Source of the DNA: a phage
Strand: one strand, 5' to 3'
Assembly: GCA_014687725.1 (NCBI GenBank)
Contig: GCA_014687725.1_4094.1
Length of the DNA stretch: 64,000 bases
The notes under the pieces were generated by a model that did no database searches, was not told where the DNA came from, and saw only the letters and a program-made list of their open reading frames with translations. The position numbers were made by a program, and so were the translations under genes. Below, one piece after another: positions 5,367 through 38,554 of the stretch (position 1 is the stretch's first letter; each line of letters opens with the position of its first letter).

Positions 5367-5458
5367 TATTAAAAAATAGTTTGACAATAGTTTTTAGTAC
5401 TGTATAATAGTTTACATGAAGGGGAGAAATGATTCTCCCCACTAAGAGGAAAAACAAA

Positions 5459-5671
5459 ATGGCTAATATCCGCACTGTACTGAAAAATGCAAAACAAGTT
5501 TTATTTTCTGATCATGAAAATTTCAACAAGGATATCACAGGTGTTCGGAATATCAAAGATGTAAAAAGTGTTATGGGTATCTATTGCAATATGAAACGTG
5601 TTGGCACGTTCGGCGATAAAGTACTATACCAGGCAGGGGATTACAATTTTACACTGACTATCATTAACTAA
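5459..5671 (+). CDS. hypothetical small protein (70 aa)
   Basis: ATG 5459 with SD AGAGGA; track start 5429 lies inside leader hairpin. Confidence 0.7.
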   Translation: MANIRTVLKNAKQVLFSDHENFNKDITGVRNIKDVKSVMGIYCNMKRVGTFGDKVLYQAGDYNFTLTIIN

Positions 5672-5684
5672 AAATATTATCACA

Positions 5685-5720
5685 GTACTATTGACAACGT
5701 TTGATAGTACTGGCATAATA
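5685..5720 (+). promoter_or_regulatory. class II palindromic promoter
   Basis: TTGACA 5691-5696, CATAAT 5714-5719; CAGTACTATTGACA..TGATAGTACTG. Confidence 0.55.
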
Positions 5721-5762
5721 ACTTTTATCAAGACAACGCATATTAATTTAAGGAATACTAAA

Positions 5763-5942
5763 ATGGCTATTATCGCAAAAACTGAAATCATCGGCCTGGA
5801 TTCTATCATCATGACGTTTGAAGATCAAAAAGGGATGTATGTAGTTTCCTATGGTGATTATGTTCGGGAGTATGAAACGGTAGACGAAGCCTTTGAAAGT
5901 TACATTCGCCAGGTGAATAAAGCATACGACGACTACCGCTAA
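5763..5942 (+). CDS. hypothetical small protein (59 aa)
   Basis: ATG 5763 with SD AAGGAA; track ORF started in promoter. Confidence 0.6.
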   Translation: MAIIAKTEIIGLDSIIMTFEDQKGMYVVSYGDYVREYETVDEAFESYIRQVNKAYDDYR

Positions 5943-5961
5943 AATATATTACCAGTACTAT

Positions 5962-5997
5962 TAAATCTATTGACAATGATTGATAGTACAGTATAAT
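5962..5997 (+). promoter_or_regulatory. class II palindromic promoter
   Basis: TTGACA 5970-5975, TATAAT 5992-5997. Confidence 0.5.
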
Positions 5998-6041
5998 AAG
6001 TTTTATAAACAGTAGTTAACTTAACCTAAGAGAGAAACAAA

Positions 6042-6185
6042 ATGATCGCACTGGATTCATTCATCGACGCAGTACTGGCAAAAACTGGCGAGGATCTGAC
6101 CGCAGAACAATACGCGATGATCGAGCAATGCCAGCAAAACGGTAAATCGGTGAAAGATACTGTTAAGATTATCCGCAAGATGTAA
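6042..6185 (+). CDS. hypothetical small protein (47 aa)
   Basis: ATG with SD AAGAGAGA; below track cut-off. Confidence 0.55.
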   Translation: MIALDSFIDAVLAKTGEDLTAEQYAMIEQCQQNGKSVKDTVKIIRKM

Positions 6186-6191
6186 GAATAT

Positions 6192-6220
6192 AGCCCACTG
6201 GTTAACGCTGGTGGGCTTTA
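6192..6220 (+). terminator. terminator-like hairpin containing a Chi octamer
   Basis: stem AGCCCAC/GTGGGCT with 12-nt loop, weak T-tract; GCTGGTGG 6207-6214. Confidence 0.4.
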
Positions 6221-6290
6221 ATCATTTACCCTATACAATGCCAGTACTAAACCGTTTAACTCGTTAGAATGCATTACAGGACGTTTAACA

Positions 6291-6488
6291 ATGATTAGCA
6301 TGAAATCAGTACAAAAACAAATTGATACATTATCAAAAATTAAACGTAAACAATACTCATTAGAATATACAATCAATGGTAACTATCATCTAATGAAAGA
6401 GAATAATTTCATAGTCATTGATGAATCATTGCAAGTTATTAGTATAGTACTGAAAGCATTAATCAATGACAGAAAAAAGTTAAAATAA
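6291..6488 (+). CDS. hypothetical small protein (65 aa), weak
   Basis: Track ORF; poor SD, very AT-rich. Confidence 0.35.
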   Translation: MISMKSVQKQIDTLSKIKRKQYSLEYTINGNYHLMKENNFIVIDESLQVISIVLKALINDRKKLK

Positions 6489-6492
6489 TCTA

Positions 6493-6521
6493 TTGACAAA
6501 TTATGCCAGTACTGGCATAAT
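6493..6521 (+). promoter_or_regulatory. class II-type promoter
   Basis: TTGACA 6493-6498, 17-nt spacer, CATAAT 6516-6521. Confidence 0.55.
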
Positions 6522-6583
6522 ACTTACATCAAGACGAGAACGTCACTAACCCATAGGGTGCACAAATGTAGCTGTCTAATATT

Positions 6584-6614
6584 GATCAAAAAATGATCTG
6601 ATCAATACTTGATC
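6584..6614. promoter_or_regulatory. GATC cluster within repeated TGATCA motifs (4 GATC in 31 bp)
   Basis: GATC at 6584, 6595, 6600, 6611; sits in a 330-bp gene-free region. Confidence 0.5.
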
Positions 6615-6819
6615 AATTTGCGTAAAGTAGTATAATTCTATGCAGTTGGTTAGACGAAAGGTTATGATTAGTAGTGGAAGTGTATAAAAATTTTCATGGT
6701 GTGGTGATCCGCACATATGGGGATGAATATGTCGTGTCGTATGGATTGGAAAAAGTAAGAACAAGTAATATACTTGTCGCGTTACAGTACTATAGTATTT
6801 TTATAATGAGGTTAAAATA

Positions 6820-7077
6820 ATGGCTGTAGGATTCACGAAAGATGGGGCCGAGCAAGACGAGATTAACGCAGTGATTCAGGCCGCTGTTAACCACGCTAGA
6901 ACGCAAATTAACGCACAAATAGAATCACTGATACATTGCCTCGACTGCGGCGATATAATCCCTGAGAAACGACGCCAGGCCGTTAAGGGATGTAAGTACT
7001 GCATAACTTGCCAGGAGGATCATGATAGTACTTTTAAACGTCCCCCGCGTAATTGTTGGCATAGATCTATGAGATAA
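6820..7077 (+). CDS. DksA/TraR-family C4 zinc-finger protein
   Basis: CLDCGDIIPEKRRQAVKGCKYC matches the TraR/DksA zinc-finger signature (CxxC...GxxIPxxRRxA...CxxC). Confidence 0.75.
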   Translation: MAVGFTKDGAEQDEINAVIQAAVNHARTQINAQIESLIHCLDCGDIIPEKRRQAVKGCKYCITCQEDHDSTFKRPPRNCWHRSMR

Positions 7078-7083
7078 AAAGTA

Positions 7084-7111
7084 TTGACAGTACTGAAAGA
7101 TAGTGTATAAT
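7084..7111 (+). promoter_or_regulatory. sigma70-like promoter
   Basis: TTGACA 7084-7089, 16-nt spacer, TATAAT 7106-7111. Confidence 0.5.
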
Positions 7112-7140
7112 ATTTTATATCTTAACTGAGGATTGAAATC

Positions 7141-7497
7141 ATGGGAATACAACATATCACGCGTACTACTGACAATGGCGAGATCACTGGCTATCAAGTA
7201 CAGGGCAAAGTAGCACAATTGCAGTACTGGTTTGTTAAACGTGGAATCATTGCACCGGATCTTGATTATGACCGTGTAGCGTTTATTGATTCTCTTTATG
7301 TTGATCCTGATAGTCGGGGCAATGGTGAAGGTAACGAATTAATGAATGCCTTTATTGATGCCGCCGATGATTCAGATTGTATCATTTTAGAATGCGATAC
7401 GGGAGAAGATAACGCCTTTAATCTTAAAGAATGGTACGAAGGTTTCGGATTCGAGGTACTGATCGATAGTGAATATCCTATCATGATTTTATCATAG
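7141..7497 (+). CDS. GNAT-family acetyltransferase-like protein (118 aa)
   Basis: VDPDSRGNGEGNELMNAF resembles the acetyl-CoA-binding R/QxxGxG/A loop; family call tentative. Confidence 0.6.
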   Translation: MGIQHITRTTDNGEITGYQVQGKVAQLQYWFVKRGIIAPDLDYDRVAFIDSLYVDPDSRGNGEGNELMNAFIDAADDSDCIILECDTGEDNAFNLKEWYEGFGFEVLIDSEYPIMILS

Positions 7498-7575
7498 TAC
7501 TTGCATTTAGTTTTCAGTACTGTTATAGTACTTACATCAAGGGGAAACATCTTCCCCTACTAAGAGGAAATAAAA

Positions 7576-7764
7576 ATGGAAAACTTATCAAGTATTTTAG
7601 TACAAGATGATTTCGGTAATCCTGGAAGTGCTATCATTGTTCGGGGTAATAAAGCAACATTTGTTATTGCTGGTGGACCTGTACAGCGTAGCATTAAAAA
7701 TAATGCTGTTACCATTAATAATGTACGCTATCGCTTAGATAAAGAATTGATTCATAAACTTTAA
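7576..7764 (+). CDS. hypothetical small protein (62 aa)
   Basis: ATG with SD AAGAGGAA behind class I cassette. Confidence 0.65.
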   Translation: MENLSSILVQDDFGNPGSAIIVRGNKATFVIAGGPVQRSIKNNAVTINNVRYRLDKELIHKL

Positions 7765-7848
7765 AAAGTATTTGACAATAGATTATAGTACTGTATAATA
7801 AGTTACATGAAGGGGTGAAATGATTCTCCCCACTAAGAGGAAAGAAAA

Positions 7849-8061
7849 ATGCAAGGTCAACTAATCGTTCGTAAATGGTCTGATACTAACGAAAAACCGT
7901 GGGATGTACAATACATCGGACCGGATGGGGTATCACGTTATCAGCCTGGCGTAACGCATAGTACTGAGCAATTCGCAAACGCTCACCGCGAACGCCTGTT
8001 AGAATCCATGAAACAGGGATTCTGTGAAAAATTCATTCAAGATCATTGGCTGAAAGATTAA
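7849..8061 (+). CDS. hypothetical small protein (70 aa)
   Basis: ATG with SD AAGAGGAA behind class I cassette. Confidence 0.7.
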   Translation: MQGQLIVRKWSDTNEKPWDVQYIGPDGVSRYQPGVTHSTEQFANAHRERLLESMKQGFCEKFIQDHWLKD

Positions 8062-8078
8062 TATAAGGAGTACAGCTT

Positions 8079-8171
8079 ATGCAAATGAATCCGATGATTA
8101 TTGTTTTAGCTGTACTTATGATCATTCATGCAATAGTAGAAGTATTAACGCAATCAGGAGTAATAAAATGA
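8079..8171 (+). CDS. 30-aa hydrophobic peptide
   Basis: ATG 8 nt after SD AAGGAG; MQMNPMIIVLAVLMIIHAIVEVL...; below track cut-off. Confidence 0.45.
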   Translation: MQMNPMIIVLAVLMIIHAIVEVLTQSGVIK

Positions 8172-8341
8172 TTCAAGTAGAATTATCAGTACTGAAAGAT
8201 CTGTTTTATCGGTTAGGTACTACTGGCGAGTATCCTAAAAGTGATACCGCAAAACTTTTTGTATCACTCGACTTATGGCAACGCGAACAATTAGTAATGT
8301 CCTGGCGTAAAGGTAAAGCAGATAGCGAGGTGAAAGCATGA
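8168..8341 (+). CDS. hypothetical small protein (57 aa)
   Basis: ATGA overlap with upstream stop; below track cut-off. Confidence 0.5.
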   Translation: MIQVELSVLKDLFYRLGTTGEYPKSDTAKLFVSLDLWQREQLVMSWRKGKADSEVKA

Positions 8342-8487
8342 AAGAATTCTTATTCGAAGTAGTGTTTCAAGGTGTCGGTAGTAACCAACTGATTCGCTCA
8401 AGTGGTTACAATGTTAACCAGGCATGGAATAACATTAAACAAATGTACCCGAACGCTATCACCTATCGCAACCCGAAACAAGTTTAA
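8338..8487 (+). CDS. hypothetical small protein (49 aa)
   Basis: ATGA overlap with upstream stop; followed by R1 terminator. Confidence 0.5.
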   Translation: MKEFLFEVVFQGVGSNQLIRSSGYNVNQAWNNIKQMYPNAITYRNPKQV

Positions 8488-8494
8488 AAATAAT

Positions 8495-8585
8495 TGAAAA
8501 AGGGATTGACTCCGGTCAGTCCCTTTGCTATTATATACGCATAGAAACAAATCAGCCCACAGGGTGCATAAATGTATCTATTGTT
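8495..8585 (+). repeat. R1 terminator-promoter cassette, copy B
   Basis: A-run + hairpin GGGATTGACTCCGGTCAGTCCC 8502-8523 + T-run; TTGACT 8506-8511, 17-nt spacer, TATTAT 8529-8534; 3' box ..AGCCCACAGGGTGCATAAATGTATCTATTG. Confidence 0.6.
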
Positions 8586-8812
8586 TGCTGGTGGCTAGTA
8601 CTATCAAGTACTGAAAACTATTTTTAAAAAAGTACTTGCATTGTACTTAGAATCAAGTATAATGTTTTACATCAGGACGGGGAACGAAACAAGTAACCCC
8701 GTTAAGTAGTCCAGGAGTAAGACATAAGAAAACCTCCCCTGATAAAATAGTTTGACAATAGAAAGTAAACGAGTATAATACTTACATCAACCACTGATAA
8801 GGAAACATTAAA

Positions 8813-9088
8813 ATGCGGATTCTACTGACAGCTAACGAAATCGAACAAGTACTGACTACTAACCTGGAAGACTGGAAACGTGAAGCAGATATCCAGGCGG
8901 TTCAACGGCTTAACGATGAGTTAACGCCGGATGACTTAAGCAAGATTGTAGATCCTCAATTCTACGAAGATATCCACGACACCGCGTTAAGCGTCGAGGA
9001 TGTACTAGATAAGCACTACATTGATATTGATTTGCAGGTTTACGGTCGTAAAAACTTTATCACTATTCACGACATTTACAATAATTAA
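8813..9088 (+). CDS. hypothetical protein (91 aa)
   Basis: ATG with SD AAGGAA; two promoters upstream. Confidence 0.7.
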   Translation: MRILLTANEIEQVLTTNLEDWKREADIQAVQRLNDELTPDDLSKIVDPQFYEDIHDTALSVEDVLDKHYIDIDLQVYGRKNFITIHDIYNN

Positions 9089-9174
9089 GTATTGACAAAG
9101 TATCTTAGTACTGTATAATAGTTTACATCGAGAGGGGGAATGGTTCCCCTCCTAACAAAGAGAGAGAAATAAAA

Positions 9175-9357
9175 ATGGCTAAATGCACTATCTGTAAGAA
9201 AGAAATCGTATTAGTTCCAAGTGCCCGTGAACGTGCCGCTCGGTTCGGTGGCAAACCGTCAGACTATACAAAAATGTTTACTGTCCATGCAGCTTGCCAG
9301 GTAGCAAAACGTTCACAAGAAAGCGTAGAATTAATGCGTAAACTTTCCAAAAAATAA
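9175..9357 (+). CDS. hypothetical small protein (60 aa), Cys-containing
   Basis: ATG with SD AGAGAGA behind class I cassette. Confidence 0.7.
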   Translation: MAKCTICKKEIVLVPSARERAARFGGKPSDYTKMFTVHAACQVAKRSQESVELMRKLSKK

Positions 9358-9445
9358 GTATTGACAAAGTATCTTAGTACTGTATAATAGTTTACATCAA
9401 GTGAGGGGAAACGGTTCCCCTCCTAACAAAGAGAGAGAAATAAAA

Positions 9446-9769
9446 ATGGCTATGATCCTTGCCCAGAAAGTAGAACTGAAAATTGTAACCTCCTTTGACA
9501 TTAAAGTTAATCGGTGGACTGATTCACACGGCAATACTTACCACTCTTGCTACGTGTCTGCGTTAATTGGTGATCGTTGGGAAGACCTGGGACATGAAAC
9601 CTTTACATACGGTTACGGCACACAAGGCGAATACACGGGCTTGGAGATCATTAAAGAAACCGTTATAGGTTTCAACCCGAAAGAAACAGTTATTCACCGC
9701 ATCGAGGAAGAGATCAACAAAGAAATAACAGTTCGATACTACGATGTAAAACGTAAGAAAGATATGTAA
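9446..9769 (+). CDS. hypothetical protein (107 aa)
   Basis: ATG 9446; track start 9401 is a GTG inside the leader hairpin; cassette 9355-9445 duplicates 9084-9174. Confidence 0.7.
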   Translation: MAMILAQKVELKIVTSFDIKVNRWTDSHGNTYHSCYVSALIGDRWEDLGHETFTYGYGTQGEYTGLEIIKETVIGFNPKETVIHRIEEEINKEITVRYYDVKRKKDM

Positions 9770-9855
9770 TAGAATCCATTTAAAGTACTATTTGACATTG
9801 CCCAGATAGTACTTTATAATAGACTCTAACTTGTAGTACTAACTCAACTAATAGG

Positions 9856-10260
9856 ATGTATACCATGATTACTAAATTCTACGCTACCCGTGAAGCTGCC
9901 CGTATTGTTGCACGCGAGGAAGGAGCAGCATTTAAAGACATGGGCAAAGATGCACCGAAAGGCCAACGCTGGGCCGTACAGTTCAAAGAGATCTCTGATA
10001 TTGTGAATTCACCTGAGCCAGTACTAACAGCAGCAGAACTAAAACGAGCGGATTTACTGGCGTCAATACTTGATGCACAAGATGAGTTTATCGCTGATTC
10101 TGATATCAAAGTACAGACAAACCATACCGCTTGGACTCACGCGGATCACCTGGCAAACCTGAAGCGTCCAAGTGAACTGGTACGCAACCAGAAAGAGATC
10201 CGACACGACCGTAAGGGTAATCGTGTAACAGTATACAGTAAACGCCGCCAGGTTATCTAA
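9856..10260 (+). CDS. hypothetical protein (134 aa)
   Basis: Track ORF; alternative ATG at 9865; GC-richer than neighbours. Confidence 0.7.
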   Translation: MYTMITKFYATREAARIVAREEGAAFKDMGKDAPKGQRWAVQFKEISDIVNSPEPVLTAAELKRADLLASILDAQDEFIADSDIKVQTNHTAWTHADHLANLKRPSELVRNQKEIRHDRKGNRVTVYSKRRQVI

Positions 10261-10282
10261 TAACTTGCAGTACTAACAACAC

Positions 10283-10308
10283 GGCGGGATCAGTTCCCGC
10301 CTTTTTTA
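10283..10308 (+). terminator. rho-independent terminator
   Basis: stem GGCGGGA/TCCCGCC + T6. Confidence 0.8.
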
Positions 10309-10321
10309 TAGGACAAACAAA

Positions 10322-10576
10322 ATGATTAAGGTTCAACTATATAAAGATAATATCTTGCGGGTACACTATAAAGCCCCTCAGAGAATCATCACAAAGGCCG
10401 TACAGCTTGCTAATGAGTTTATTAATGGTAACCTATTACCAAGGAAGTTAAGCAACGGAAAACTGCGTGTAATCGATGTAGACACTAACAACAGAATAGT
10501 AATTGAGAACACAGGAAAGATAAACCTATATGAACACCAACAATATAATAAGAAAATAAAACTAATATCACGTTGA
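10322..10576 (+). CDS. hypothetical protein (84 aa)
   Basis: ATG with SD AGGA. Confidence 0.6.
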   Translation: MIKVQLYKDNILRVHYKAPQRIITKAVQLANEFINGNLLPRKLSNGKLRVIDVDTNNRIVIENTGKINLYEHQQYNKKIKLISR

Positions 10577-10629
10577 CAGTACTCAATTGTTTTAGTACTA
10601 TGTACATATACCAACACGGGAGAAACAAA

Positions 10630-10848
10630 ATGAAATTATCTAAAATCGAAAAGAAAACTATTGATGAAGCAGTTAAGCACGGTTATACCTTTCGTAATGA
10701 TTCACATTTTACCAATTTTCAACAAGGGTATCGTACTATTAAAAAACTCATTGACAAAGGTTTATTAGTTGAAGTCAATAACGGCAATGGTATTGAGTAT
10801 CAACCAACACAAGACGCATTTTATTTTAAGAAATATAATATTATCTAA
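10630..10848 (+). CDS. hypothetical protein (72 aa)
   Basis: ATG 10630 with SD GGGAGAAA; track start 10573 is the TTG of the promoter -35. Confidence 0.65.
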   Translation: MKLSKIEKKTIDEAVKHGYTFRNDSHFTNFQQGYRTIKKLIDKGLLVEVNNGNGIEYQPTQDAFYFKKYNII

Positions 10849-10905
10849 TTGACAGTACTCAAATGTTTTAGTACTATATGTACATACCAACACGGGGAAA
10901 ACAAA

Positions 10906-11148
10906 ATGATTACTTTAGAAAAACGTATCAAAGAAACTACATCGCTGGTGGAACTGTTAACAGTACTGAAATGCCGTACTACTCGGTTTAGTACACCGGA
11001 CTTTATTAATATGGTTGATGTTAACGGTCGTTATCGCATTGCAGTAGAACAAGGAACAGCGAAAGTATTCAGTACTAAAAACACTAAGGAAGTGATTCAT
11101 GCTGTAAGTGTTAAAAAAGTAGTTGCCATTGATAGTAAAGTACTGTAA
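10906..11148 (+). CDS. hypothetical protein (80 aa)
   Basis: ATG 10906; promoter/leader block 10849-10905 duplicates 10563-10629. Confidence 0.65.
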   Translation: MITLEKRIKETTSLVELLTVLKCRTTRFSTPDFINMVDVNGRYRIAVEQGTAKVFSTKNTKEVIHAVSVKKVVAIDSKVL

Positions 11149-11179
11149 GATAGTTTCATTAACTCAAGGAGAACATGCA

Positions 11180-11764
11180 ATGCGTAATTATACTAAATTC
11201 ATCCGTACCCTGTCAGAAATGGAAACCAACAAAGAGATCCTTTCAGCTTGTCGGTTAGCTGGTCTGGAGATCATCGGTGCGGGTTCTTCCCGTATTGTAT
11301 TCGCTTTAAATGATCGGTTAGTGATCAAGGTCGCGAATTGTGATGCGGGTGTAGAACAAAATGAAACTGAATGTAAGGTATGGAATTTTTTAGATTATGA
11401 CCGCCCTCAATTGAAACAGTACTTTGCAAAGGTGCATATGCATTTATGCGATCCTGATAATATGTTTATCGTTATGGATCGGTTGAGTACTGCAAGTAAA
11501 GGCAGTGTAAAGCACGTAAACGCGTGCAATGAATTAAAGTACAATATTAAACGTAATGCCATTGAACGCCAGCACCGCTTTGCTGATGCACTACAACACG
11601 TTGATGATACATTATCAACACTAACGATAAGAGATATCAGAAAACAGAATATCGGCCAGGATCGTAATGGCCTTATTAAAGTACTTGATTACGGTTTAAC
11701 CCGCAATATCTGGAATCAGTACTATAAAAAGCGTGATGTAGAAGCAAGTAAGGTAACACGATAA
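11180..11764 (+). CDS. protein kinase-like protein (eukaryote-type kinase fold)
   Basis: Gly-rich loop GAGSSRIVF, VIKVA lysine, catalytic-loop-like IRDIRKQN, DFG-like DYG; ATG with SD AAGGAG. Confidence 0.75.
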   Translation: MRNYTKFIRTLSEMETNKEILSACRLAGLEIIGAGSSRIVFALNDRLVIKVANCDAGVEQNETECKVWNFLDYDRPQLKQYFAKVHMHLCDPDNMFIVMDRLSTASKGSVKHVNACNELKYNIKRNAIERQHRFADALQHVDDTLSTLTIRDIRKQNIGQDRNGLIKVLDYGLTRNIWNQYYKKRDVEASKVTR

Positions 11765-11771
11765 AAAAGAT

Positions 11772-11862
11772 TAAAAAAGGGATTGACTCCGGTCAGTCCC
11801 TTTGCTATTATATATTCATTGAGAGATAACTCACTGACCCATAGGGTGCGGAAGTGTATCTA
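11772..11862 (+). repeat. R1 terminator-promoter cassette, copy C
   Basis: hairpin 11779-11800; TTGACT 11783-11788, TATTAT 11806-11811. Confidence 0.6.
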
Positions 11863-11984
11863 TTATATAAGTATTCAGTACTGAAAACTATTTTAAAAAA
11901 GTACTTGCAATGTACTTAGAATCAAGTATAATGTTTTACATAGAGAGGGGGAAATGGTTCTCCCTGGTAATAAGGAATAAAATC

Positions 11985-12206
11985 ATGACTACAATGACTT
12001 GCATTTACGCTTCCAATCTTCTGAATGATGCGGCCTTTAATGTTGATTCAGAATATCAATGTTATCGGGATGAAAATAAAAAAGTTTTTGTAGTTGATAA
12101 TAATGGTTTCCATATTGAATTACAATCCGGTTTCACTGGTGTTGATGGTAAATCAGTGTGGGGCGTACAGGATGATAAAGGCACATATCATTTTAAACGT
12201 AATTAA
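11985..12206 (+). CDS. hypothetical small protein (73 aa)
   Basis: ATG 11985 with SD AAGGAA; track start 11910 is inside promoter/leader. Confidence 0.7.
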   Translation: MTTMTCIYASNLLNDAAFNVDSEYQCYRDENKKVFVVDNNGFHIELQSGFTGVDGKSVWGVQDDKGTYHFKRN

Positions 12207-12290
12207 GTATTGACAAAGTATATCAGTACTGTATAATAGTTTACATCAAGGGGAGAATAGTTCTCCCCGATACTAAAAGGAAACAAAATT

Positions 12291-12563
12291 ATGTCCAGCT
12301 ACTCCGCTACTATGATCATTAAAGATATGAACGGTAATCCTACTTCTGCTGGTGGATCATTTGGAAACATTAATTTAGATGGTCGGTTATCCATGCAATC
12401 AGCCATCGATGCAGCGAAAGAAGTTTTTAAGAATGAATGTACTGTTAGTAAGCTGGATTATATGGGATTCGCTATCGAGAAAACTAATCGTTTTGTGAAC
12501 TACAAAAATCCACTGATGATTGATACTAACCTGAAAGCTAACGAAGTGGGGTACTTATTATGA
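12291..12563 (+). CDS. hypothetical protein (90 aa)
   Basis: ATG with SD AAAGGAA behind class I cassette. Confidence 0.7.
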   Translation: MSSYSATMIIKDMNGNPTSAGGSFGNINLDGRLSMQSAIDAAKEVFKNECTVSKLDYMGFAIEKTNRFVNYKNPLMIDTNLKANEVGYLL

Positions 12564-12751
12564 CAGTAGAAGAAGTTAAAAAAGTACTGGCAGTACTACG
12601 CTATCATAATCATTGCAAGGTGAAGAATGATCCTGATTATGTTGATTCATCCCTGGAGGAAGACACATTAAACGCAATAAGCCATATGCAAACATTAGCA
12701 AAGCGTATGACCGAAAAGAATAGACCGGACTATATCGGAAATAAAATTTAA
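12560..12751 (+). CDS. hypothetical small protein (63 aa)
   Basis: ATGA overlap with upstream stop. Confidence 0.6.
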   Translation: MTVEEVKKVLAVLRYHNHCKVKNDPDYVDSSLEEDTLNAISHMQTLAKRMTEKNRPDYIGNKI

Positions 12752-12837
12752 AAAGTACTTGCATTGTAGTTAGATTAACGTATAATGTTTTACATAGAGC
12801 GGGGGAACTATTCCCCCGCCAGTCCAGGAGATACACC

Positions 12838-13101
12838 ATGAACACTATCGAAATCACTATCAATGCACACGTATACGACAACGTAGTACTGCAAACTACT
12901 ATGACCGCTAATGATACCAGTACTTTGCGGAATACTGTTATTAGTGCCGTATGTGCCGCTATCGGTGATGTCGCCCTGGAAAATGCAGAACACATCAACA
13001 ACGGTTTCACTATGTGCAAACGTGATAACGCAAAACATATCATCGTAGAAGGTTACGGCGGTGTAGAATATAATCTTTATATGAAAAAAGTACTTGCATA
13101 A
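12838..13101 (+). CDS. hypothetical protein (87 aa)
   Basis: ATG with SD AGGAGA behind class I cassette. Confidence 0.7.
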   Translation: MNTIEITINAHVYDNVVLQTTMTANDTSTLRNTVISAVCAAIGDVALENAEHINNGFTMCKRDNAKHIIVEGYGGVEYNLYMKKVLA

Positions 13102-13168
13102 TAACTAAAACAAAGTATAATGTTTTGCATAGGGGGAGATATCCTCCCCCACTAAAAGGAGTAATAAA

Positions 13169-13393
13169 ATGGCTAACTTTGATGAACTGATGCGGGAAGT
13201 AGCTAACCTGGCAGAAGAGAAGAAATCATTCGATTCTATCTATAACACCGCTCACCGTGATTCAGTACTGGCATGTACTCAGGATCAAAAAGATGAACTA
13301 ATCGCCACATATCATGAAGCATGGAAGTACTACCGCCAATGGGAGAAAGAAGAAAGCGAGTCTACCATCAACGGCATCAATAATCTAATCTAA
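13169..13393 (+). CDS. hypothetical small protein (74 aa)
   Basis: ATG with SD AAAGGAG behind class I cassette. Confidence 0.7.
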   Translation: MANFDELMREVANLAEEKKSFDSIYNTAHRDSVLACTQDQKDELIATYHEAWKYYRQWEKEESESTINGINNLI

Positions 13394-13469
13394 AAGTTTT
13401 ATTTCAGTACTATTGACATAGCTTGATAGTACTGATGTAATAACTTTACTAACTACAAGGGGAAACATA

Positions 13470-13727
13470 ATGGAACAGTTCACACAATATCGGGTAAATC
13501 CTCAAGCTATGGCCTACGTAGAAGACCATAAAACGTTACCAGTACTAACACCAATTAAAGGCCATATCTATCGTGCAATGTCATGGAATACGGCCCAGGA
13601 TGGATATACTACCGCTGGCGTGGGTATGTATTGCGGGAATGGTGAATGGTTTGATCCAAATAATCCGGTAGCCATTGACAGTACTGAAAAAATGAAATGG
13701 GCCGACTACATCGAAGATATTTCATAA
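13470..13727 (+). CDS. hypothetical protein (85 aa)
   Basis: ATG with SD AAGGGGAA behind class II promoter (TTGACA 13413-13418). Confidence 0.7.
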   Translation: MEQFTQYRVNPQAMAYVEDHKTLPVLTPIKGHIYRAMSWNTAQDGYTTAGVGMYCGNGEWFDPNNPVAIDSTEKMKWADYIEDIS

Positions 13728-13816
13728 AACTATTTGACAGTACTAACCAGTAATGTATAATGTTTTACATAGAGCGGGGGAATAGTTCTCCCGCCAATAG
13801 TTTGGAGTAAAACATT

Positions 13817-14017: not shown

Positions 14018-14028
14018 CAAAAAAGAAT

Positions 14029-14115
14029 AAAAAAAGGGATTGACTCCGGTCAGTCCCTTTGCTATTATATACGCATAGACAAAAACTAGCCCACTGGGTG
14101 CAGGAGTGTATCTAA
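14029..14115 (+). repeat. R1 terminator-promoter cassette, copy D
   Basis: hairpin 14036-14057; TTGACT 14040-14045, TATTAT 14063-14068. Confidence 0.6.
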
Positions 14116-16636: not shown

Positions 16637-16860
16637 AACATTTAAGTAATATTGAGAAGATGAGAATTATCATTGATGCATTAAACAAATACGATACCCT
16701 TTTACAAATAAAAGGTTTAACTCGATTGGAACACAAGATAAACACCACCGATGTACGCATGTTGGCTGTACTGGGGACGAACTTTCAGGAAGAGTATGTT
16801 GTTGCACACATAGTTGCACTCACTAATTACATAATGGACAAATGTAATGAACATCATTAA
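16633..16860 (+). CDS. family A paralog
   Basis: motif LGTNFQEE; ATGA overlap. Confidence 0.65.
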   Translation: MKHLSNIEKMRIIIDALNKYDTLLQIKGLTRLEHKINTTDVRMLAVLGTNFQEEYVVAHIVALTNYIMDKCNEHH

Positions 16861-17071
16861 TAACTTTGAATACGAGGCCCGTGCTAAGAGTGCCAGAAAA
16901 AAAGAGAACACCATTTACTTCACTATGATGTACTTACAATGGACTGAAATTGAAGAAAAGGTTGCTGAAGTATGGATGTTGGAATTCATGGGGACGCAGT
17001 ATCAGAATAGGTTTGCGGGTGAGTATATCAATGTTCTTATGAAACAAATAGAAAGAAAGGAAAAGAACTAA
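16847..17071 (+). CDS. family A paralog
   Basis: motif MGTQYQNR. Confidence 0.65.
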   Translation: MNIINNFEYEARAKSARKKENTIYFTMMYLQWTEIEEKVAEVWMLEFMGTQYQNRFAGEYINVLMKQIERKEKN

Positions 17072-17229
17072 TGGTTTTCATTAACATATCTGACCAACTC
17101 GATACTAAACTAGAAGTCGAGCAGAGTGAGGGATGGATGCTGTACTTTCTTGGAACTTCTCATCAGAATTTTTATATCCATGAACACATAGTTGCACTCA
17201 AGAATTACATTATGGACAAATGCAAATGA
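17071..17229 (+). CDS. family A paralog, N-terminally shortened copy (52 aa)
   Basis: motif LGTSHQNF; C-terminus HIVALKNYIMDKC repeats that of the 16633-16860 copy; TAATG overlap; below track cut-off. Confidence 0.4.
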   Translation: MVFINISDQLDTKLEVEQSEGWMLYFLGTSHQNFYIHEHIVALKNYIMDKCK

Positions 17230-17483
17230 AATACTTAACACAAGATGAATATTCACTTAGAATTCGAAAGCTCACCCCAGAAGCAAGAGTAATCTACGAT
17301 GACCCCACCCTTACATGGAACCAAATGCGAGCTAAAGTTAATGAGCTATGGTTGCTGTACTTTATGGGGACTCAATATCAAGATAAGTTTTGCAAAGAAT
17401 TTGTCGATCAATTAATGAATGTTATACAGGATAAACTAGATGAATATTGGCTCGCAAAACATGAAGACTTTATCAGGAGTTGA
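17220..17483 (+). CDS. family A paralog
   Basis: motif MGTQYQDK. Confidence 0.65.
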   Translation: MQMKYLTQDEYSLRIRKLTPEARVIYDDPTLTWNQMRAKVNELWLLYFMGTQYQDKFCKEFVDQLMNVIQDKLDEYWLAKHEDFIRS

Positions 17484-17712
17484 GTATCAAACTGCCCTCT
17501 TCTCTCTTATTAACACCCTTAGAAAAAACAATGCATTACATGGTGCACCTGAAGTGGATGTTATCAACGGTGATGTTTATCTTATGAAATTCATTGGAAC
17601 AAACTATCAAGATCTGTTCATTCAACGATACTTGGCAGCATTAAGAAACCAAATCCAATATAAAACCCGTCAAGCCCAAAGAGAATGGAAGAGACAATGC
17701 GACAAAGACTAA
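17461..17712 (+). CDS. family A paralog
   Basis: motif IGTNYQDL; start uncertain (track 17440). Confidence 0.6.
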   Translation: MKTLSGVEYQTALFSLINTLRKNNALHGAPEVDVINGDVYLMKFIGTNYQDLFIQRYLAALRNQIQYKTRQAQREWKRQCDKD

Positions 17713-17945
17713 ATCACAAAATGTATTGTAAACTATTACAAACACTGGCACAGAAACACTATGACACCGTATCTGAAATATTACCCTATGATATCATGCG
17801 TTTAATTCATAGTGAGGCCGAGATGCTTGTACTGATGAGAGGGACTGATAAAACAGCAATAGCCAGATCGATTGAGCAATATATTGATGCACACTGCCAA
17901 CACATGAGAACCGAAATCTGGAGGAAAGAGAATGATAATCCTTAA
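17685..17945 (+). CDS. family A paralog (divergent)
   Basis: motif region MRGTDKTA; tandem position. Confidence 0.55.
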   Translation: MEETMRQRLNHKMYCKLLQTLAQKHYDTVSEILPYDIMRLIHSEAEMLVLMRGTDKTAIARSIEQYIDAHCQHMRTEIWRKENDNP

Positions 17946-26148: not shown

Positions 26149-26633
26149 AGTTCAGCTTAGATGCTGCATTTAAATATGTTCACAAGATAGAAACAATATA
26201 CAGTACATTATGTGCAATAAAATCAGTAACAGAAGAGCTTGATGTTGGTGAAAAATATCAGGTATGGAATAATACATTTTTAAATAAAGAACGTTGCTCT
26301 ACGGGGTTTAATATTTTAACATTTAATCCCAGCAATTGTTACCCAGAGAAGCATGAACGTTATCCGAATGACGACATGTGGTTTGAGTACAAAGAAGATT
26401 GTGATATGTCGTTCATTGAAGTTCCTGATGATTTTAATGCACAAGATTTAACAGACGAGTGGTGGTTCCAGCAGAATTTAGTCCACGATGATATTGATTT
26501 ATTTTTTTATGTAGTATTTAAAATGCTTTATCACAACAATATAGTACAAGATAGTGTGTTTTTTTCATGTCTATATATTGATGATTTGTACAATGAAATT
26601 CAAATCAACATGCCCAGCACGCCTGTATCGTAA
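26127..26633 (+). CDS. family B paralog
   Basis: motif LTDEWWFQQNLVHD. Confidence 0.65.
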   Translation: MQYMYDLEFSLDAAFKYVHKIETIYSTLCAIKSVTEELDVGEKYQVWNNTFLNKERCSTGFNILTFNPSNCYPEKHERYPNDDMWFEYKEDCDMSFIEVPDDFNAQDLTDEWWFQQNLVHDDIDLFFYVVFKMLYHNNIVQDSVFFSCLYIDDLYNEIQINMPSTPVS

Positions 26634-26649
26634 GATATGGGCTTTTTTC
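26612..26649 (+). terminator. terminator-like hairpin + T-run
   Basis: 5-bp stem GCCCA/TGGGC with long loop, then T6. Confidence 0.4.
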
Positions 26650-26658
26650 GTTTTGGTA

Positions 26659-26687
26659 TTGACAAAGAAGTGCAAAGCTGTTATCAT
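26659..26687 (+). promoter_or_regulatory. sigma70-like promoter inside array
   Basis: TTGACA 26659-26664, 17-nt spacer, TATCAT 26682-26687. Confidence 0.5.
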
Positions 26688-26715
26688 GTGTAATCATTTT
26701 AAAGGAGAACATATA

Positions 26716-27228
26716 GTGAGTTTCATAATCCCAAGTACATACGAAGATGCATCAAGTGCAGTTCATAAGATTCATTATATTTTTAATTTAATTATTAGAT
26801 CTGCAAAAATTAAAATGTATGCACCTCTTGTGACAAATAATCGAAATGAAGAAATTTTTATTAGCACAGACAAAATTATTTTTCCATATTTCAATGAAGA
26901 TAGATTGTGGTTCATACATTTAGCTGCATTACAAAAATATAAGATGTCAATTCGTAATAATTTGGTTATACCGTTATATCATCCAGATATTGGAGAGGAT
27001 GAGTATTTTCAGTACAGTACAGTGCATCGCCATGAAGATATCTTTGTTGCTATGCTTATTGCTAAATTGAACACCGTTGATTTGGAGTACCACAAATACA
27101 ATAATAAATCATGTAAGATCATAATCCCTGCATTCATAGCTCTTTATGATTATGTGGTGCATAACAAAAAAGATGATACATATGCTTTCAATGAAGAGTA
27201 TTTGGATTTTTTTAAGGATAACATATGA
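26716..27228 (+). CDS. family B paralog
   Basis: motif IGEDEYFQYSTVH; GTG 26716 with SD AAAGGAG (track ORF began upstream at 26554; alt ATG 26683). Confidence 0.55.
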   Translation: MSFIIPSTYEDASSAVHKIHYIFNLIIRSAKIKMYAPLVTNNRNEEIFISTDKIIFPYFNEDRLWFIHLAALQKYKMSIRNNLVIPLYHPDIGEDEYFQYSTVHRHEDIFVAMLIAKLNTVDLEYHKYNNKSCKIIIPAFIALYDYVVHNKKDDTYAFNEEYLDFFKDNI

Positions 27229-30600: not shown

Positions 30601-30798
30601 AGACGTTTCATTTTGACAGGCCGCAGGGGGGGGTCAAAAAAATTTCCGCTGAAAAACATGCTAAGGTATATGTTTAATATAAAGTTTTATATTGTGTTTT
30701 TCAGAGTACAGTTCATGTTTCCTGAAACAAAAAATACCCCGCCGCCGAACGTTCTCCTTATATTGGAGTTTACCTTATTAATTATAGTAGAGATTAAG

Positions 30799-31176
30799 AT
30801 GGAAATAAAATATAATGAATTTTGTGCAAGGACATGGATGTACACTGGTGAGTTAGTTACGCACTCTAACTTATACAAGGGTGATTTAAACTACGCTAGG
30901 GACAAGATTTTAAAGTACTGGAATGCTGACTTTTATTTGATGGATTTTAGTACTGGGTTTAGGGGTAAAGCAACCGAGATGTTGGACTATACAGTACTTG
31001 ATGATGCTGCACTGTTTCAGGCGGCATTAGTATTTGATAAGAAGTACATCTGTACATTAGAAGAGATGATTGAATTACAGCGTAGAATTAAATGTATTCA
31101 CAGGGAATGTATAGATATCTGGTGCAGTACTGGTGAAGATGATTTTTGTAATCATTTCAATCTAGGGGAAGTGTGA
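30799..31176 (+). CDS. family B paralog
   Basis: motif LDDAALFQAALVFD; ATG 30799; track start 30613 (TTG) runs through a G8 tract and non-coding-looking sequence. Confidence 0.55.
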   Translation: MEIKYNEFCARTWMYTGELVTHSNLYKGDLNYARDKILKYWNADFYLMDFSTGFRGKATEMLDYTVLDDAALFQAALVFDKKYICTLEEMIELQRRIKCIHRECIDIWCSTGEDDFCNHFNLGEV

Positions 31177-31337
31177 TGGAATTTGATTTTTTAATATCAG
31201 TACATTCTTTTAAGCACAGTTATCAGTACTTTTGTAATTTAAACAAAGGTGATTTGATTATGGATACAGATACAGAGGCTGTATACAGTTCTAATATTCT
31301 GTACAAATTCAGTACTAATCTGAAGGAGATTTTATGA
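31176..31337 (+). CDS. family B paralog, truncated N-terminal duplicate (53 aa)
   Basis: first 27 codons near-identical to gene 31705-32061 (MEFDFLISVH(S/T)FKHSYQYFCNLNKGDL); likely recombination remnant. Confidence 0.4.
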   Translation: MEFDFLISVHSFKHSYQYFCNLNKGDLIMDTDTEAVYSSNILYKFSTNLKEIL

Positions 31338-31705
31338 AAAAAGAAATTAGAATTCAATTCGGTATGAGGAAAAAAGAGGTCATCTGTACACTGAATCATG
31401 CGGTCGTGGAAAGCCTTGGTGGTGCATTACAAAAATTCTCCCATTTTGTTCTTGTACTATATGAAAATGGGTCTTTTAAAATCTTCACATATGATGATTC
31501 AAAAAATTACCGTAATGATTTTGTAAATCTGACAGTACTGTCAGAAGAGGAATTCTTTCAGGAAAGTACTGTCTGGAATTTACCAGGAGCACCAATTGAA
31601 TACGTCCGTGCTACACAGGCAGAAATGATCAAAGTAATGCAGAACTATCCAGAAGATTATATGACTAAGTTTCCTGAATCTATTTATGTAGAGGTTGAGT
31701 ACTGA
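31334..31705 (+). CDS. family B paralog
   Basis: motif LSEEEFFQESTVW; ATGA overlap. Confidence 0.65.
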   Translation: MKKEIRIQFGMRKKEVICTLNHAVVESLGGALQKFSHFVLVLYENGSFKIFTYDDSKNYRNDFVNLTVLSEEEFFQESTVWNLPGAPIEYVRATQAEMIKVMQNYPEDYMTKFPESIYVEVEY

Positions 31706-32061
31706 TGGAATTTGATTTTTTAATATCAGTACATACTTTCAAGCACAGTTATCAGTACTTTTGTAATTTAAACAAAGGTGATTTAATGCACAGTGCAAAT
31801 GAGTATATTCATTACACTCAGGGTAAATTTACATTCATTGATTACAGTTCATTACAGTATCCACACCAAGATATGCCGGACTATACATTAATGGATACCG
31901 CAGAACTATTCCAAGAATCATTAGTATTTGATAAGAAGTACTTGTGTACATTTGAAGAAGTTATTGCAATACAAAATGAAATGAAAGAGTATGCTGCTTT
32001 GCATAAACCCAATGCAAGTATTAATCAAGAATACAAATTCAATTTAGGAATTCAAGAATGA
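31705..32061 (+). CDS. family B paralog
   Basis: motif MDTAELFQESLVFD. Confidence 0.65.
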   Translation: MEFDFLISVHTFKHSYQYFCNLNKGDLMHSANEYIHYTQGKFTFIDYSSLQYPHQDMPDYTLMDTAELFQESLVFDKKYLCTFEEVIAIQNEMKEYAALHKPNASINQEYKFNLGIQE

Positions 32062-32417
32062 CATATGATTATTCTATGTACTATTATAAGTTACCTAAAG
32101 GATGGGACTTGTGCTGTAATCTTATTAAGGGCGACTCGGAACATGAGTTGAGTTTATATATGCATTACAAAGATTCTTGTTTTAAATTTATTCATGTATC
32201 ACATGACGACTATGACTATGAATCTGAGAGTCTTATAGATTATACAGTACTGGACGATGGTGAACTATTTCAGGCTGCATTAGTGTTTGATAAGAATAAG
32301 TACTCCTGTACATTTGAAGAAATGGTTTCTTTGCAAAATGAAATGAAGAGATTTGAAAAAGAAAACGTATTTAATCCATCCCCATCAAGAACGAATAATT
32401 ATTATTTCAATATATGA
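32058..32417 (+). CDS. family B paralog
   Basis: motif LDDGELFQAALVFD; ATGA overlap. Confidence 0.65.
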   Translation: MTYDYSMYYYKLPKGWDLCCNLIKGDSEHELSLYMHYKDSCFKFIHVSHDDYDYESESLIDYTVLDDGELFQAALVFDKNKYSCTFEEMVSLQNEMKRFEKENVFNPSPSRTNNYYFNI

Positions 32418-32426
32418 GATTATAAA

Positions 32427-32918
32427 ATGACATTACAGAGTTCATTGGAAAAAGCAAAGAAGATTCATGAGTACATGAATATGGCAAAAGAAGGTTCAGT
32501 TTACGGTGTTTTCAAAGACACAAGTACTCAATATTATGTACCGGATAACCTCCTTTATAATGACTGCTCAGATACAGAAACGTGCGTACTGGATACAGAA
32601 ACGTGCATACTAGATACCGACCCTAATGATTATGAATGCTTCATTAATATGCATAATGAGTACATGGTCTATATTAATGATACAGATACCATCAACAGTA
32701 CTGACAGCGATTCCAATGACATTATAATTCCGAGTGAAGTACTGGAAGGTCCGTGGGATAGTGAAGAGTATTACTTCCAACAAAGTACTGTATATGATAA
32801 TGAAGTACTTGATGTTATTATAATTATGTGGTACTTTAAAAGTATTGGTTCTGGGAACTTCTATTTCGATTACAAATACGTAAAGAAAACTGTAGATAAC
32901 GGTATTAACAGGGGTTGA
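32427..32918 (+). CDS. family B paralog (WDSEEYYFQ subgroup)
   Basis: motif WDSEEYYFQQSTVYD; contains in-frame 21-bp tandem repeat 32571-32621. Confidence 0.65.
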   Translation: MTLQSSLEKAKKIHEYMNMAKEGSVYGVFKDTSTQYYVPDNLLYNDCSDTETCVLDTETCILDTDPNDYECFINMHNEYMVYINDTDTINSTDSDSNDIIIPSEVLEGPWDSEEYYFQQSTVYDNEVLDVIIIMWYFKSIGSGNFYFDYKYVKKTVDNGINRG

Positions 32919-32919
32919 A

Positions 32920-33390
32920 ATGAGTTTAGAAAGAGCATTAGAGATTGCGAAGTTAATTGATTTATGCAGCAAAGAAATTGTAGCAAATTGTCTTAATGGA
33001 TATCTATTCAAGGAAGGTAAATCATATTGTCGAATGAGATACGATGACAGTAGTGAGTACATTCACATGTATGAAGAAAACTTAGATTCTTCTGAAACAA
33101 CACTCAATGGGTGTGATGTTAATTTGGAAGATAATTACATGTACTTCTGTCGTGATGCTGATATTTTAATACAAGATTCTGACATTATATCTGGTGCAGC
33201 AGAGAAACATCTTCCGTATTCAGTACTGGATAATGACTGGGGAAGTGAAGAGTACTACTTCCAGCAGAATACTATCTACGAGGAAGATGTACTTGACAAG
33301 CTTGTCATTCTGTGGTACTTTAATAATACAGATTGTCCTAGCTTCTATTTGGACTTGGATCTACTACGAGTTATTAAAGAGGATATATGA
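32920..33390 (+). CDS. family B paralog (WDSEEYYFQ subgroup)
   Basis: motif WGSEEYYFQQNTIYE. Confidence 0.65.
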   Translation: MSLERALEIAKLIDLCSKEIVANCLNGYLFKEGKSYCRMRYDDSSEYIHMYEENLDSSETTLNGCDVNLEDNYMYFCRDADILIQDSDIISGAAEKHLPYSVLDNDWGSEEYYFQQNTIYEEDVLDKLVILWYFNNTDCPSFYLDLDLLRVIKEDI

Positions 33391-33830
33391 GTTTAGCAAG
33401 TGCACTTGAACTAGCACACAGAATACATCACTTCCACGATAACATAAAAAGTGGTTTCTATGGTGATAAAGTAAGTGCATTTGGTAATGAGTATTATCTA
33501 TCAGGTATAAAGACATACTCTGATGATATTTTACTTATGGGACAGGATAAAGACAATACTATACAGTACTCTTCATGTAGTCAATATACTAATTTTTTTG
33601 TATATATTCCAGGTACTAAGATTACTTTTGACACAACAAATACACCTGTTGACTTCGGGGTACTTGATGGCCCGTGGGGTACTGAAGAGTATTACTTCCA
33701 ACAGAGTCTCATTTTTAACCAAGAAATTCTTGATTCCTTGGTTGTGTTGTGGTACTTTAAGGAATTGAATTTTGAACCATTCTTTCTTGACTGGGGAGCA
33801 TGTGAATATTTAAGTACAGGGGATTTGTAA
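33387..33830 (+). CDS. family B paralog (WDSEEYYFQ subgroup)
   Basis: motif WGTEEYYFQQSLIFN; ATGA overlap. Confidence 0.65.
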   Translation: MSLASALELAHRIHHFHDNIKSGFYGDKVSAFGNEYYLSGIKTYSDDILLMGQDKDNTIQYSSCSQYTNFFVYIPGTKITFDTTNTPVDFGVLDGPWGTEEYYFQQSLIFNQEILDSLVVLWYFKELNFEPFFLDWGACEYLSTGDL

Positions 33831-36346: not shown

Positions 36347-36542
36347 TCGAATTGAATACATGAGAACTGTGAGTGCAGTGTGGGACATATGGTTCACTAC
36401 TAAACCAAAAATGGATTACCATGACTTTAAGCTCTTGTTCTTCGTTGGCTCTAACAAACAGGATGTTGCAATGAAGGGTTATATTCAGCACTTACAGGAA
36501 CTAATCCAGAAGAGAATATATGAAAATAATAGACCAAAATGA
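36324..36542 (+). CDS. family A paralog (island inside family B block)
   Basis: motif FFVGSNKQDV; ATG 36324 (track TTG 36321). Confidence 0.55.
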   Translation: MKYSKTFNRIEYMRTVSAVWDIWFTTKPKMDYHDFKLLFFVGSNKQDVAMKGYIQHLQELIQKRIYENNRPK

Positions 36543-37854: not shown

Positions 37855-37859
37855 AACAA

Positions 37860-38547: not shown

Positions 38548-38554
38548 GGTTTAT

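Follow-up and report, generated by a model that had tools for sequence, protein, structure and literature searches.

The kinase-like gene and its relatives

A 64,000-nucleotide (nt) stretch of phage DNA (contig GCA_014687725.1_4094.1 of NCBI GenBank assembly GCA_014687725.1), hereafter called the window, was analysed around a gene that encodes a 194-amino-acid (aa) protein resembling the catalytic domain of eukaryotic protein kinases. The features of the locus are collected in Table 1. The gene had been proposed, in a preliminary description made from the nucleotide sequence, to encode a minimal kinase or a pseudokinase. Its open reading frame (ORF) was borne out as real, with an ATG start, a Shine-Dalgarno sequence and the same 585-nt coding sequence (CDS) annotated in orthologous phages. 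A longer frame starting at a TTG (11123, 213 aa) was rejected, being annotated in no related genome, and the ORFs on the opposite strand at the locus are short (46 and 51 aa). All four of the motifs originally quoted (IGAGSSRIVF, VIKVA, IRDIRKQN and DYG) were found, in canonical order, and go beyond a chance resemblance. The canonical GxGxxG loop is present as the variant G33-A-G35-S-S-R38, in which an Arg, invariant in the family, takes the place of the third Gly. The catalytic-loop segment IRDIRKQN (residues 150-157, nt 11627-11650) lacks the His of HRD, having I150 at that position, and its Lys lies at +3 from D152, compared with +2 in HRDxKxxN.

Across the window, identity to jumbo phages of the genus Asteriusvirus is 95-99%; these are Escherichia and Salmonella phages of 350-385 kb, among them PBECO4, 121Q, G17, Sharanji and CRJP21. 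T4, against which the gene was first discussed, was thus the wrong frame of reference, and the DNA belongs to an Asteriusvirus/RaK2-like jumbo phage. The gene is the ortholog of Sharanji gp063 (WNN14351.1), fEgEco12 g044 and Muenster gp043. Orthologs of equal length and 36-41% identity occur in other RaK2-like jumbo phages, namely those of Alcyoneusvirus (RaK2, K64-1, Muenster), Munch, 7t3, the Erwinia phages Hallingskeid and Kaldavass, Xanthomonas phage XbC2, and EJP2; members in fHe-Yen9-04 and CBB are about 27% identical. The ratio of nonsynonymous to synonymous substitution rates (dN/dS) among five Asteriusvirus orthologs is 0.04-0.18, and the gene is under selection. Two records depart from the common gene model. 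In PBECO4 (KC295538.1 136219-136662) the CDS is annotated from an internal Met, giving 147 aa, and the full 194-aa ORF is intact there. The CMSTMSU copy (MH494197.1 116446-117023) contains several frameshifts and has no annotated CDS, in a record flagged UNVERIFIED.

The basic kinase call is not new, as the label already stands in several GenBank records. Orthologs are named "protein kinase domain-containing protein" in ph0011, "serine/threonine-protein kinase PRP4" in fEgEco12, "PknA" in Turkey3, "putative protein kinase" in Munch, Muenster, fENko-Kae01 and SE_PL, and "protein kinase" in K64-1; most other ortholog records read "hypothetical protein". The paper on Sharanji describes gp063 as "another protein kinase" of unknown function (PMC11895373).

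Table 1. Features of the kinase-like gene and its surroundings (window coordinates, except for the two terminal repeats, which are given in the coordinates of the named genomes).
Feature	Position	Strand	Details
ParE-like toxin-domain gene, 84 aa	10322..10576	+	PF24732, E=6.4e-11, above cutoff; first gene of unit
Two promoter-bearing leader cassettes, TTGACA-17-TACTAT	10573-10601, 10849-10877	+	repeat family D5
Leaders, 71 nt, 85% identical	10563-10633, 10839-10909	+	ahead of small ORFs 10630-10848 and 10906-11148
Weak sigma-70-like promoter, TTGCCA-17-TAAGAT	11123..11151	+	9/12 consensus match only; overlaps end of preceding ORF
Shine-Dalgarno AAGGAG	11166..11171	+	ends 8 nt 5' of ATG; read from sequence
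CDS, 194-aa minimal protein-kinase-like protein	11180..11764	+	ATG start; 585 nt; phrog_4301 family
Gly-rich loop IGAGSSRIVF, residues 32-41	11273..11302	+	G33, G35, S36, R38
Beta-3 motif VIKVA, residues 48-52	11321..11335	+	K50 codon 11327-11329
Helix C family signature G57-x-x-Q60-N61-x-x-E64	11348..11371	+	family conservation counts and model
Catalytic-loop equivalent IRDIRKQNIG	11627..11656	+	D152 (catalytic Asp), N157, G159
DYG, DFG-equivalent metal-binding motif, residues 170-172	11687..11695	+	D170, G172
Short C-terminal helix, residues 175-182	11702..11725	+	conserved aromatics W178, Y181, Y182; model and family counts
Terminator-like hairpin AAAGGGATTGACTCCGGTCAGTCCCTTT	11776..11803	+	12 nt 3' of stop; identical copies at 8499 and 14033
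Terminal repeat of vB_Ec-M-J (Asteriusvirus)	1-21,525		gene at 16,690-17,274
Terminal repeat of Muenster (Alcyoneusvirus)	1-20,030		gene at 17,325-17,909

Placement in the protein-kinase-like superfamily

Profile searching, named beforehand as the test able to overturn the kinase assignment, placed the protein in the protein-kinase-like superfamily. In Pfam the single sequence had Pkinase as its top match, below threshold (E=0.0024, 17.8 bits, gathering cutoff 31.7 bits), with PK_Tyr_Ser-Thr also among the top matches; the Pkinase alignment ended at profile position 152 of 263. Searches of the PDB with the single sequence gave weak matches, in nearly all of which a protein kinase was aligned over the catalytic loop and DFG. 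Family profiles also matched kinases among the solved structures. With a 14-sequence profile, residues 29-183 were aligned with residues 21-172 of the MKK7 chain, from the Gly loop to just beyond DFG. A 55-sequence profile matched MKK4 at E=1.2e-5 and reached 562 sequences at E<=1; among the matches listed, 60 of 60 were kinases. Twelve of the 55 relatives, searched singly, matched Pkinase at E<=0.1 (best 5.7e-6), and five matched ABC1. The only PHROG matched was phrog_4301, a family without assigned function (E=1e-41, residues 3-187), which is also the only PHROG matched by the divergent relatives P0007, P0194, P0241, P0169 and P0237. NCBIfam returned nothing significant. The PADLOC defence models gave only a weak generic kinase likeness to PD-T4-6 (E=2.4e-4, 18.9 bits) and nothing for the relatives tested.

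Structure prediction, proposed earlier as a check, yielded a confident model with a protein-kinase-like fold. AlphaFold used with an alignment of 14 close homologs produced a poor model (predicted local distance difference test, pLDDT, 52) with an unusable C-terminal half; with a 55-sequence alignment the model was confident (pLDDT 93.5, predicted template modelling score, pTM, 0.89). Helices were predicted at residues 4-12 and 17-26 near the N-terminus, at 55-73 (long), 109-120 and 130-145, and at 175-182 (short). Strands were predicted at 30-34, 38-42, 47-52 and 96-100, with two short strands at 158-160 and 166-168 just before DYG. The model has the bilobal organization of kinases, a five-stranded N-lobe with helix C and a core with helix E, the catalytic loop and the metal-binding loop, and it matches protein-kinase-like folds in structure searches. 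A protein-kinase-like fold is almost certain.

The same results bear on whether the protein could instead be a small-molecule kinase in the style of the APH, choline or Kdo kinases, acting on a metabolite, a nucleotide or alarmone, an antibiotic-like compound, a sugar or a lipid. This is considered unlikely. No APH, Choline_kinase or Kdo match was obtained in Pfam even at a permissive E<=10, and the profiles match classical Ser/Thr and Tyr kinases. The DYGL motif and the NIG ending of the catalytic loop are of the eukaryotic protein-kinase type, and the sizeable C-terminal helical subdomain with which APH-type enzymes bind substrate is absent. Of the relatives with a proven function, the nearest is the T7 gp0.7 kinase (T7K), which phosphorylates proteins and shares the truncated layout.

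Limits of the domain

Only 24 residues follow D170 before the protein ends, and the one short helix is the sole structure after DYG. The protein therefore has neither helices F-I nor an activation segment with APE, parts that take up about 100-120 residues in a normal kinase. Single-domain members of the family have a median tail of 36 residues after the DFG Asp. At least 20 long relatives are tandem arrays of two to four complete copies, each ending at profile position ~181-187, and the unit of about 190 aa is therefore an autonomous domain and not a fragment. The suggestion that this is a minimal kinase thus agrees with both the short tail after DYG and the complete domains of the arrays.

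The tandem-array ORFs themselves (P0021, P0023, P0027, P0030, P0032 and about 15 others) are 420-970 aa long, with the catalytic residues retained in every copy. Such ORFs may encode real multi-kinase proteins, or a misread genetic code may have joined neighbouring paralogs. Scans of the long relatives and of N-terminal extensions for fused domains gave no significant Pfam match.

Conservation of the catalytic residues

The phrog_4301 family is large, with more than 2,000 clusters at 50% identity, and is not covered by the copy of Pfam searched. At E<=0.001 an exhaustive profile search recovered 2,072 cluster representatives, of which 244 reached E<=1e-10; lengths of 180-250 aa predominate. 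Conservation was counted in 260 near-complete domain copies from 233 proteins, with K50, E64, D152 and D170 equated with the canonical kinase residues through hidden Markov model (HMM) alignments. K50, E64, D170 and R38 were each present in all 260 copies. Nearly as constant were Q60 (259), G172 (258), G159 (257), N61 and G57 (256 each), and D152 (256, with Glu in the remaining four). K50, E64, D152 and D170 occurred together in 256 of 260 copies, including every tandem-array unit. E64 is the probable helix C partner of K50.

Other positions of the catalytic loop vary. The Lys of DIRKQN is not conserved across the family (K in 70 and R in 55 of 260), and the column of N157, which is Asn in the 194-aa protein, holds H, N, S, T or Q. 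The residue before the catalytic Asp, Arg in this protein, is mostly Gly in the family, which therefore belongs with the non-RD kinases. The middle position of DYG is Y in 198 copies and F in 27. The resulting family signature is GxGSxR ... K ... GxxQNxxE ... D-x4-5-[NHS]-x-G ... D[YF]G-x-[TNS] ... [WYF]xx[YH]Y.

Two caveats attach to these counts. The counted sequences were collected by means of a profile of the family itself, and the columns that are scored are thereby favoured. In addition, one HMM alignment to MKK7 puts D72 (in LDYD), and not E64, at the column that holds the acidic helix C residue of MEK-type kinases. E64, being invariant, was taken as the functional helix C residue, since D72 occurs only in the close clade.

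The pseudokinase reading, in which the protein would be a non-catalytic scaffold or decoy binding a partner or nucleotide only, draws on the very short length of the protein, the missing HRD His and the variable Asn column. The Muenster record moreover cites, as the annotators' best HHpred match (probability 99.9%), chain M of 6J5T, an entry for a plant resistosome in which a pseudokinase is present. Pseudokinase families, however, typically lose at least one of the catalytic residues that are here invariant (K50, E64, D170) or kept in 98% of the 260 copies (D152), tandem arrays included. This alternative, left open when the gene was first described, is disfavoured and appears very unlikely. 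The retained residues argue instead for an active, ATP-using enzyme, which on this sequence evidence is the likely state of the protein.

Terminal repeat and predicted early expression

The gene lies within the annotated direct terminal repeat in phages of two genera, at a nearly equal distance from the genome end (Table 1), and two copies are present in records that include both repeats. Perfect promoters of the form TTGACA-N16-18-TATAAT number 12 on the + strand of the window, compared with 0.08 expected from composition, and none occur on the - strand. Ten of the 12 fall within 8.4 kb around the kinase-like gene (5,381-13,734), with the others at 39088 and 55930. They belong to several families of near-identical intergenic cassettes of 43-95 nt (repeat families D1, D3, D4 and D5). 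The assignment of the gene to an early region is supported by its place in the terminal repeat and among this cluster of perfect sigma-70 consensus promoters, and early expression is a prediction with good computational support. The region that holds the two CBB paralogs was likewise put in a predicted early, host-takeover block in the CBB paper. A literature search found no transcriptome or phosphoproteome for this phage group.

Terminator-like hairpins at 10283-10301 and 11776-11803 delimit a unit of which the kinase-like gene is the last member. The unit begins with the ParE-like gene, followed by two small ORFs, each preceded by a leader, then by the weak promoter-like site at 11123-11151 and the kinase-like gene. 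The promoters of the leader cassettes can read through into the kinase-like gene. The ParE-like and kinase-like genes are adjacent in a related contig (L009), and the leaders with their small ORFs look like promoter-plus-small-gene cassettes inserted between the two.

The hairpin downstream of the gene is part of a composite intergenic module that occurs three times (8486-8684, 11763-11953 and 14020-14114), each time with the identical 28-nt hairpin AAAGGGATTGACTCCGGTCAGTCCCTTT. The stem contains a TTGACT hexamer resembling a -35 element, paired with a -10-like TATTAT (TTGACT-17-TATTAT). About 60 conserved nt follow the hairpin, and a second promoter cassette is present in two of the copies. 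The module could be a terminator-promoter junction or a small-RNA gene; no match to it was found in Rfam.

Neighbouring genes and distant family members

No recognisable antitoxin lies beside the ParE-like gene, whose Muenster ortholog is annotated as a "YafQ-like ribonuclease toxin". A ParE-like gene is found upstream of the kinase-like gene in five lineages. The distance is 4 bp in a metagenomic relative, ~0.6-0.7 kb in Muenster and the phage of the window, and 2-3.2 kb in the phages Hallingskeid and Munch. None lies within 3.5 kb of the kinase-like gene in XbC2, EJP2, CBB or fHe-Yen9-04. With a spacing of 4 bp to 3.2 kb and its absence from four lineages, the ParE-like gene was rejected as a functional partner, and the shared order looks like inherited synteny and not a tight pair.

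The distant members all lie in large phage-like contigs, in varied settings. Four (L006-L008 and L011) are in an RNA-repair setting, beside a P-loop polynucleotide-kinase-like gene, NUDIX, T4 Rnl1 or RtcB. Members within tRNA clusters are the tandem paralogs CBB_444/445 of CBB (L022 2874-3458 and 3477-3983) and g442 of fHe-Yen9-04 (L023 3462-3971). In three metagenomic contigs of 110-210 kb (L013, L014 and L015) members of about 300 aa occupy a conserved position as a lone + strand gene in a - strand replication module, which encodes a DnaB-type helicase, a 5'-3' exonuclease, ribonucleotide reductase, RecA, a gp32-like protein and DNA polymerase A. Other distant members lie near structural genes.

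These neighbourhoods bear on the possibility that the protein is an ATPase or nucleotide-dependent switch and not a transferase to protein, perhaps in a process related to RNA or translation. Bud32/PRPK and RIO, small kinases of atypical type, work in this way in the modification of tRNA and the maturation of ribosomes. The association of the family with RNA repair and tRNA is possible but inconsistent, being absent from most of the contexts examined, the window among them, where neither a tRNA nor any Rfam match was found over the whole length. Large phages have RNA ligases and tRNAs for unrelated reasons, and nothing at the sequence level connects the protein with Bud32 or RIO. Such an ATPase is accordingly regarded as improbable.

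Elsewhere in the window, almost all ORFs of at least 150 aa are on the + strand, and the region 30658-41334 (+) contains two arrays of paralogous genes. One is an eight-member family of ~150-165 aa each (32427-35813, 39624-40094 and 40843-41334) and the other a five-member family (30658-32417 and 37860-38222).

Relation to the T7 gp0.7 kinase

T7K has been shown by experiment to be a hyperpromiscuous anti-defence kinase, and diverged homologs with a "DP-" motif and without the shut-off domain were reported in the jumbo phages G17 and Munch (PMC13645617). These belong to the same phage group as the window, and the presence of such homologs there, together with a remote profile-profile similarity, invites the reading that the 194-aa protein is the jumbo-phage ortholog of T7K. 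In that alignment (hhalign of phrog_4301 against T7K) 136 columns were matched with 81.5% probability and E=1.1e-5, spanning the Gly loop, the Lys of VIKV, the catalytic D...N and the metal-binding Asp (D170 to D213 of T7K). In a viral structure library the best named neighbours of the model were T7K-type kinases of Autographiviridae (Pantoea SK1, Yersinia fPS-53, Pectobacterium Q19, Ralstonia RSB1 and Xylella Cota; E 1e-6 to 4e-5, TM-score relative to the query, TMq, 0.5-0.59), which are structurally closer than any solved cellular kinase.

Orthology was nevertheless rejected and is highly implausible. No pairwise similarity to T7K was detected by BLASTP, an HMM of T7K built here did not match the gene at E<0.01, and PHROGs 2828/15752/18305, which T7K and gp144 of Sharanji match, were not matched by the 194-aa protein at E<=1; it has DYG and not DPV and matches phrog_4301 only. 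The true T7K homolog of Sharanji is that other gene, gp144 (WNN14432.1, 224 aa, OR545507.1 66182-66856, on the - strand of L005 at 26183-26857), which has a DPL motif and matches T7 gp0.7 by BLASTP at E=4e-8 and phrog_15752 at 1e-97; its equation with the published jumbo-phage homologs was indirect and drew on the DP- motif and on the paper about Sharanji. No counterpart of gp144 lies within the 64-kb window. T7K is accordingly treated as the closest functional analogue of the 194-aa protein and a remote relative, not a member of the same family.

Proposed function and significance

The reading that we prefer, with modest confidence, is that of a catalytically competent, minimal protein-kinase-like phosphotransferase from a family specific to phages, made early and acting on host proteins. 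The predicted fold would open with two N-terminal helices, ahead of a normal N-lobe made up of the Gly-rich loop, K50 and the helix C that bears E64. What is left of the C-lobe would be helices D and E, a catalytic loop with D152 and N157, the DYG motif with D170, and a single short helix. The fold would have no activation segment, P+1 loop, helices F-I or "HRD" His/Arg pair, and for this reason the active site is expected to be open and constitutively active, with no phosphorylation switch. The direct terminal repeat would supply two gene copies per virion genome, and the position of the gene there, among consensus promoters for the host RNA polymerase, makes synthesis of the protein within minutes of infection probable.

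The most likely role would be a low-specificity, ATP-dependent Ser/Thr phosphorylation of host proteins; protein substrates are somewhat favoured. By analogy with T7 gp0.7, such phosphorylation might help host takeover or disarm defences, a role that we put forward tentatively. A broader view is speculative and rather doubtful as a whole. It holds that the self-contained kinase domains of the very large phrog_4301 family, at ~190 residues, count among the smallest known protein-kinase-like units that are catalytically complete; that members of the family form a second constitutively active kinase of large phages, in double dosage from the terminal repeat and alongside the T7K homolog, rewiring the host or disarming its defences; and that some lineages have tandem multi-kinase proteins.

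Recent work has established phage protein kinases (T7K, JSS1_004) as broad anti-defence weapons, and only one family of them has been studied. The gene represents a second, much larger and uncharacterised family of phage kinase-like proteins, for which a literature search found neither a study nor a published activity assay. With an intact catalytic core and almost no C-lobe, it offers a natural test of how minimal a kinase fold can be for catalysis and substrate choice. It also provides a candidate early gene of host takeover for therapeutic jumbo coliphages, in which more than 80% of genes are without function. What is new here is the definition of the phrog_4301 family, its domain limit of ~190 aa and conservation signature, its separation from the coexisting T7K family and the conservation of its position in the early terminal repeat. 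In practical terms the value is moderate, given that the "putative protein kinase" label is already public.

Comparison with known kinases

With the eukaryotic protein kinase (ePK) domain (PF00069/PF07714; best matches MKK4, MKK6 and MKK7) the phage protein shares recognisable subdomains I-VII in canonical order and the ePK-type motifs "DYGL" and "D-x4-N-I-G". It lacks subdomains VIII-XI, to which the activation segment with APE, the Asp of helix F, helices G-I and the Arg of subdomain XI belong. APH(2'') enzymes are about 300 aa long, with a helical substrate-binding subdomain and the Brenner motif HxDxxxxN, whereas the phage protein is ePK-like and without that subdomain. Bud32/PRPK, RIO and Lpg2603, an atypical effector kinase of Legionella, are weak structural matches (E 1e-4 to 2e-3, TMq <=0.47) with no sequence similarity; these are cellular or effector proteins that keep more of the C-lobe helices, and Bud32 and RIO are mainly ATPases.

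The closest comparison is with the T7K family (PHROG 2828/15752; Pfam PF27024), which includes JSS1_004 and the jumbo-phage homolog gp144 of Sharanji. Both T7K and the 194-aa protein are phage-encoded and known or predicted to be early, have helices N-terminal to the Gly loop, and have a protein-kinase-like core that stops ~20-30 residues beyond the Asp equivalent to that of DFG and has no activation segment. T7K has DPV at 213-215 in a kinase domain of residues 1-242, where the phage protein has DYG, and it lacks both the invariant Gly-loop Arg and the QNxxE signature of helix C that mark phrog_4301. T7K also has a C-terminal shut-off/DNA-binding domain that is absent from the 194-aa protein and from the jumbo-phage T7K homologs. 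A phrog_4301 member and a true T7K homolog coexist in the same jumbo-phage genomes, which thus encode two distinct minimal kinases.

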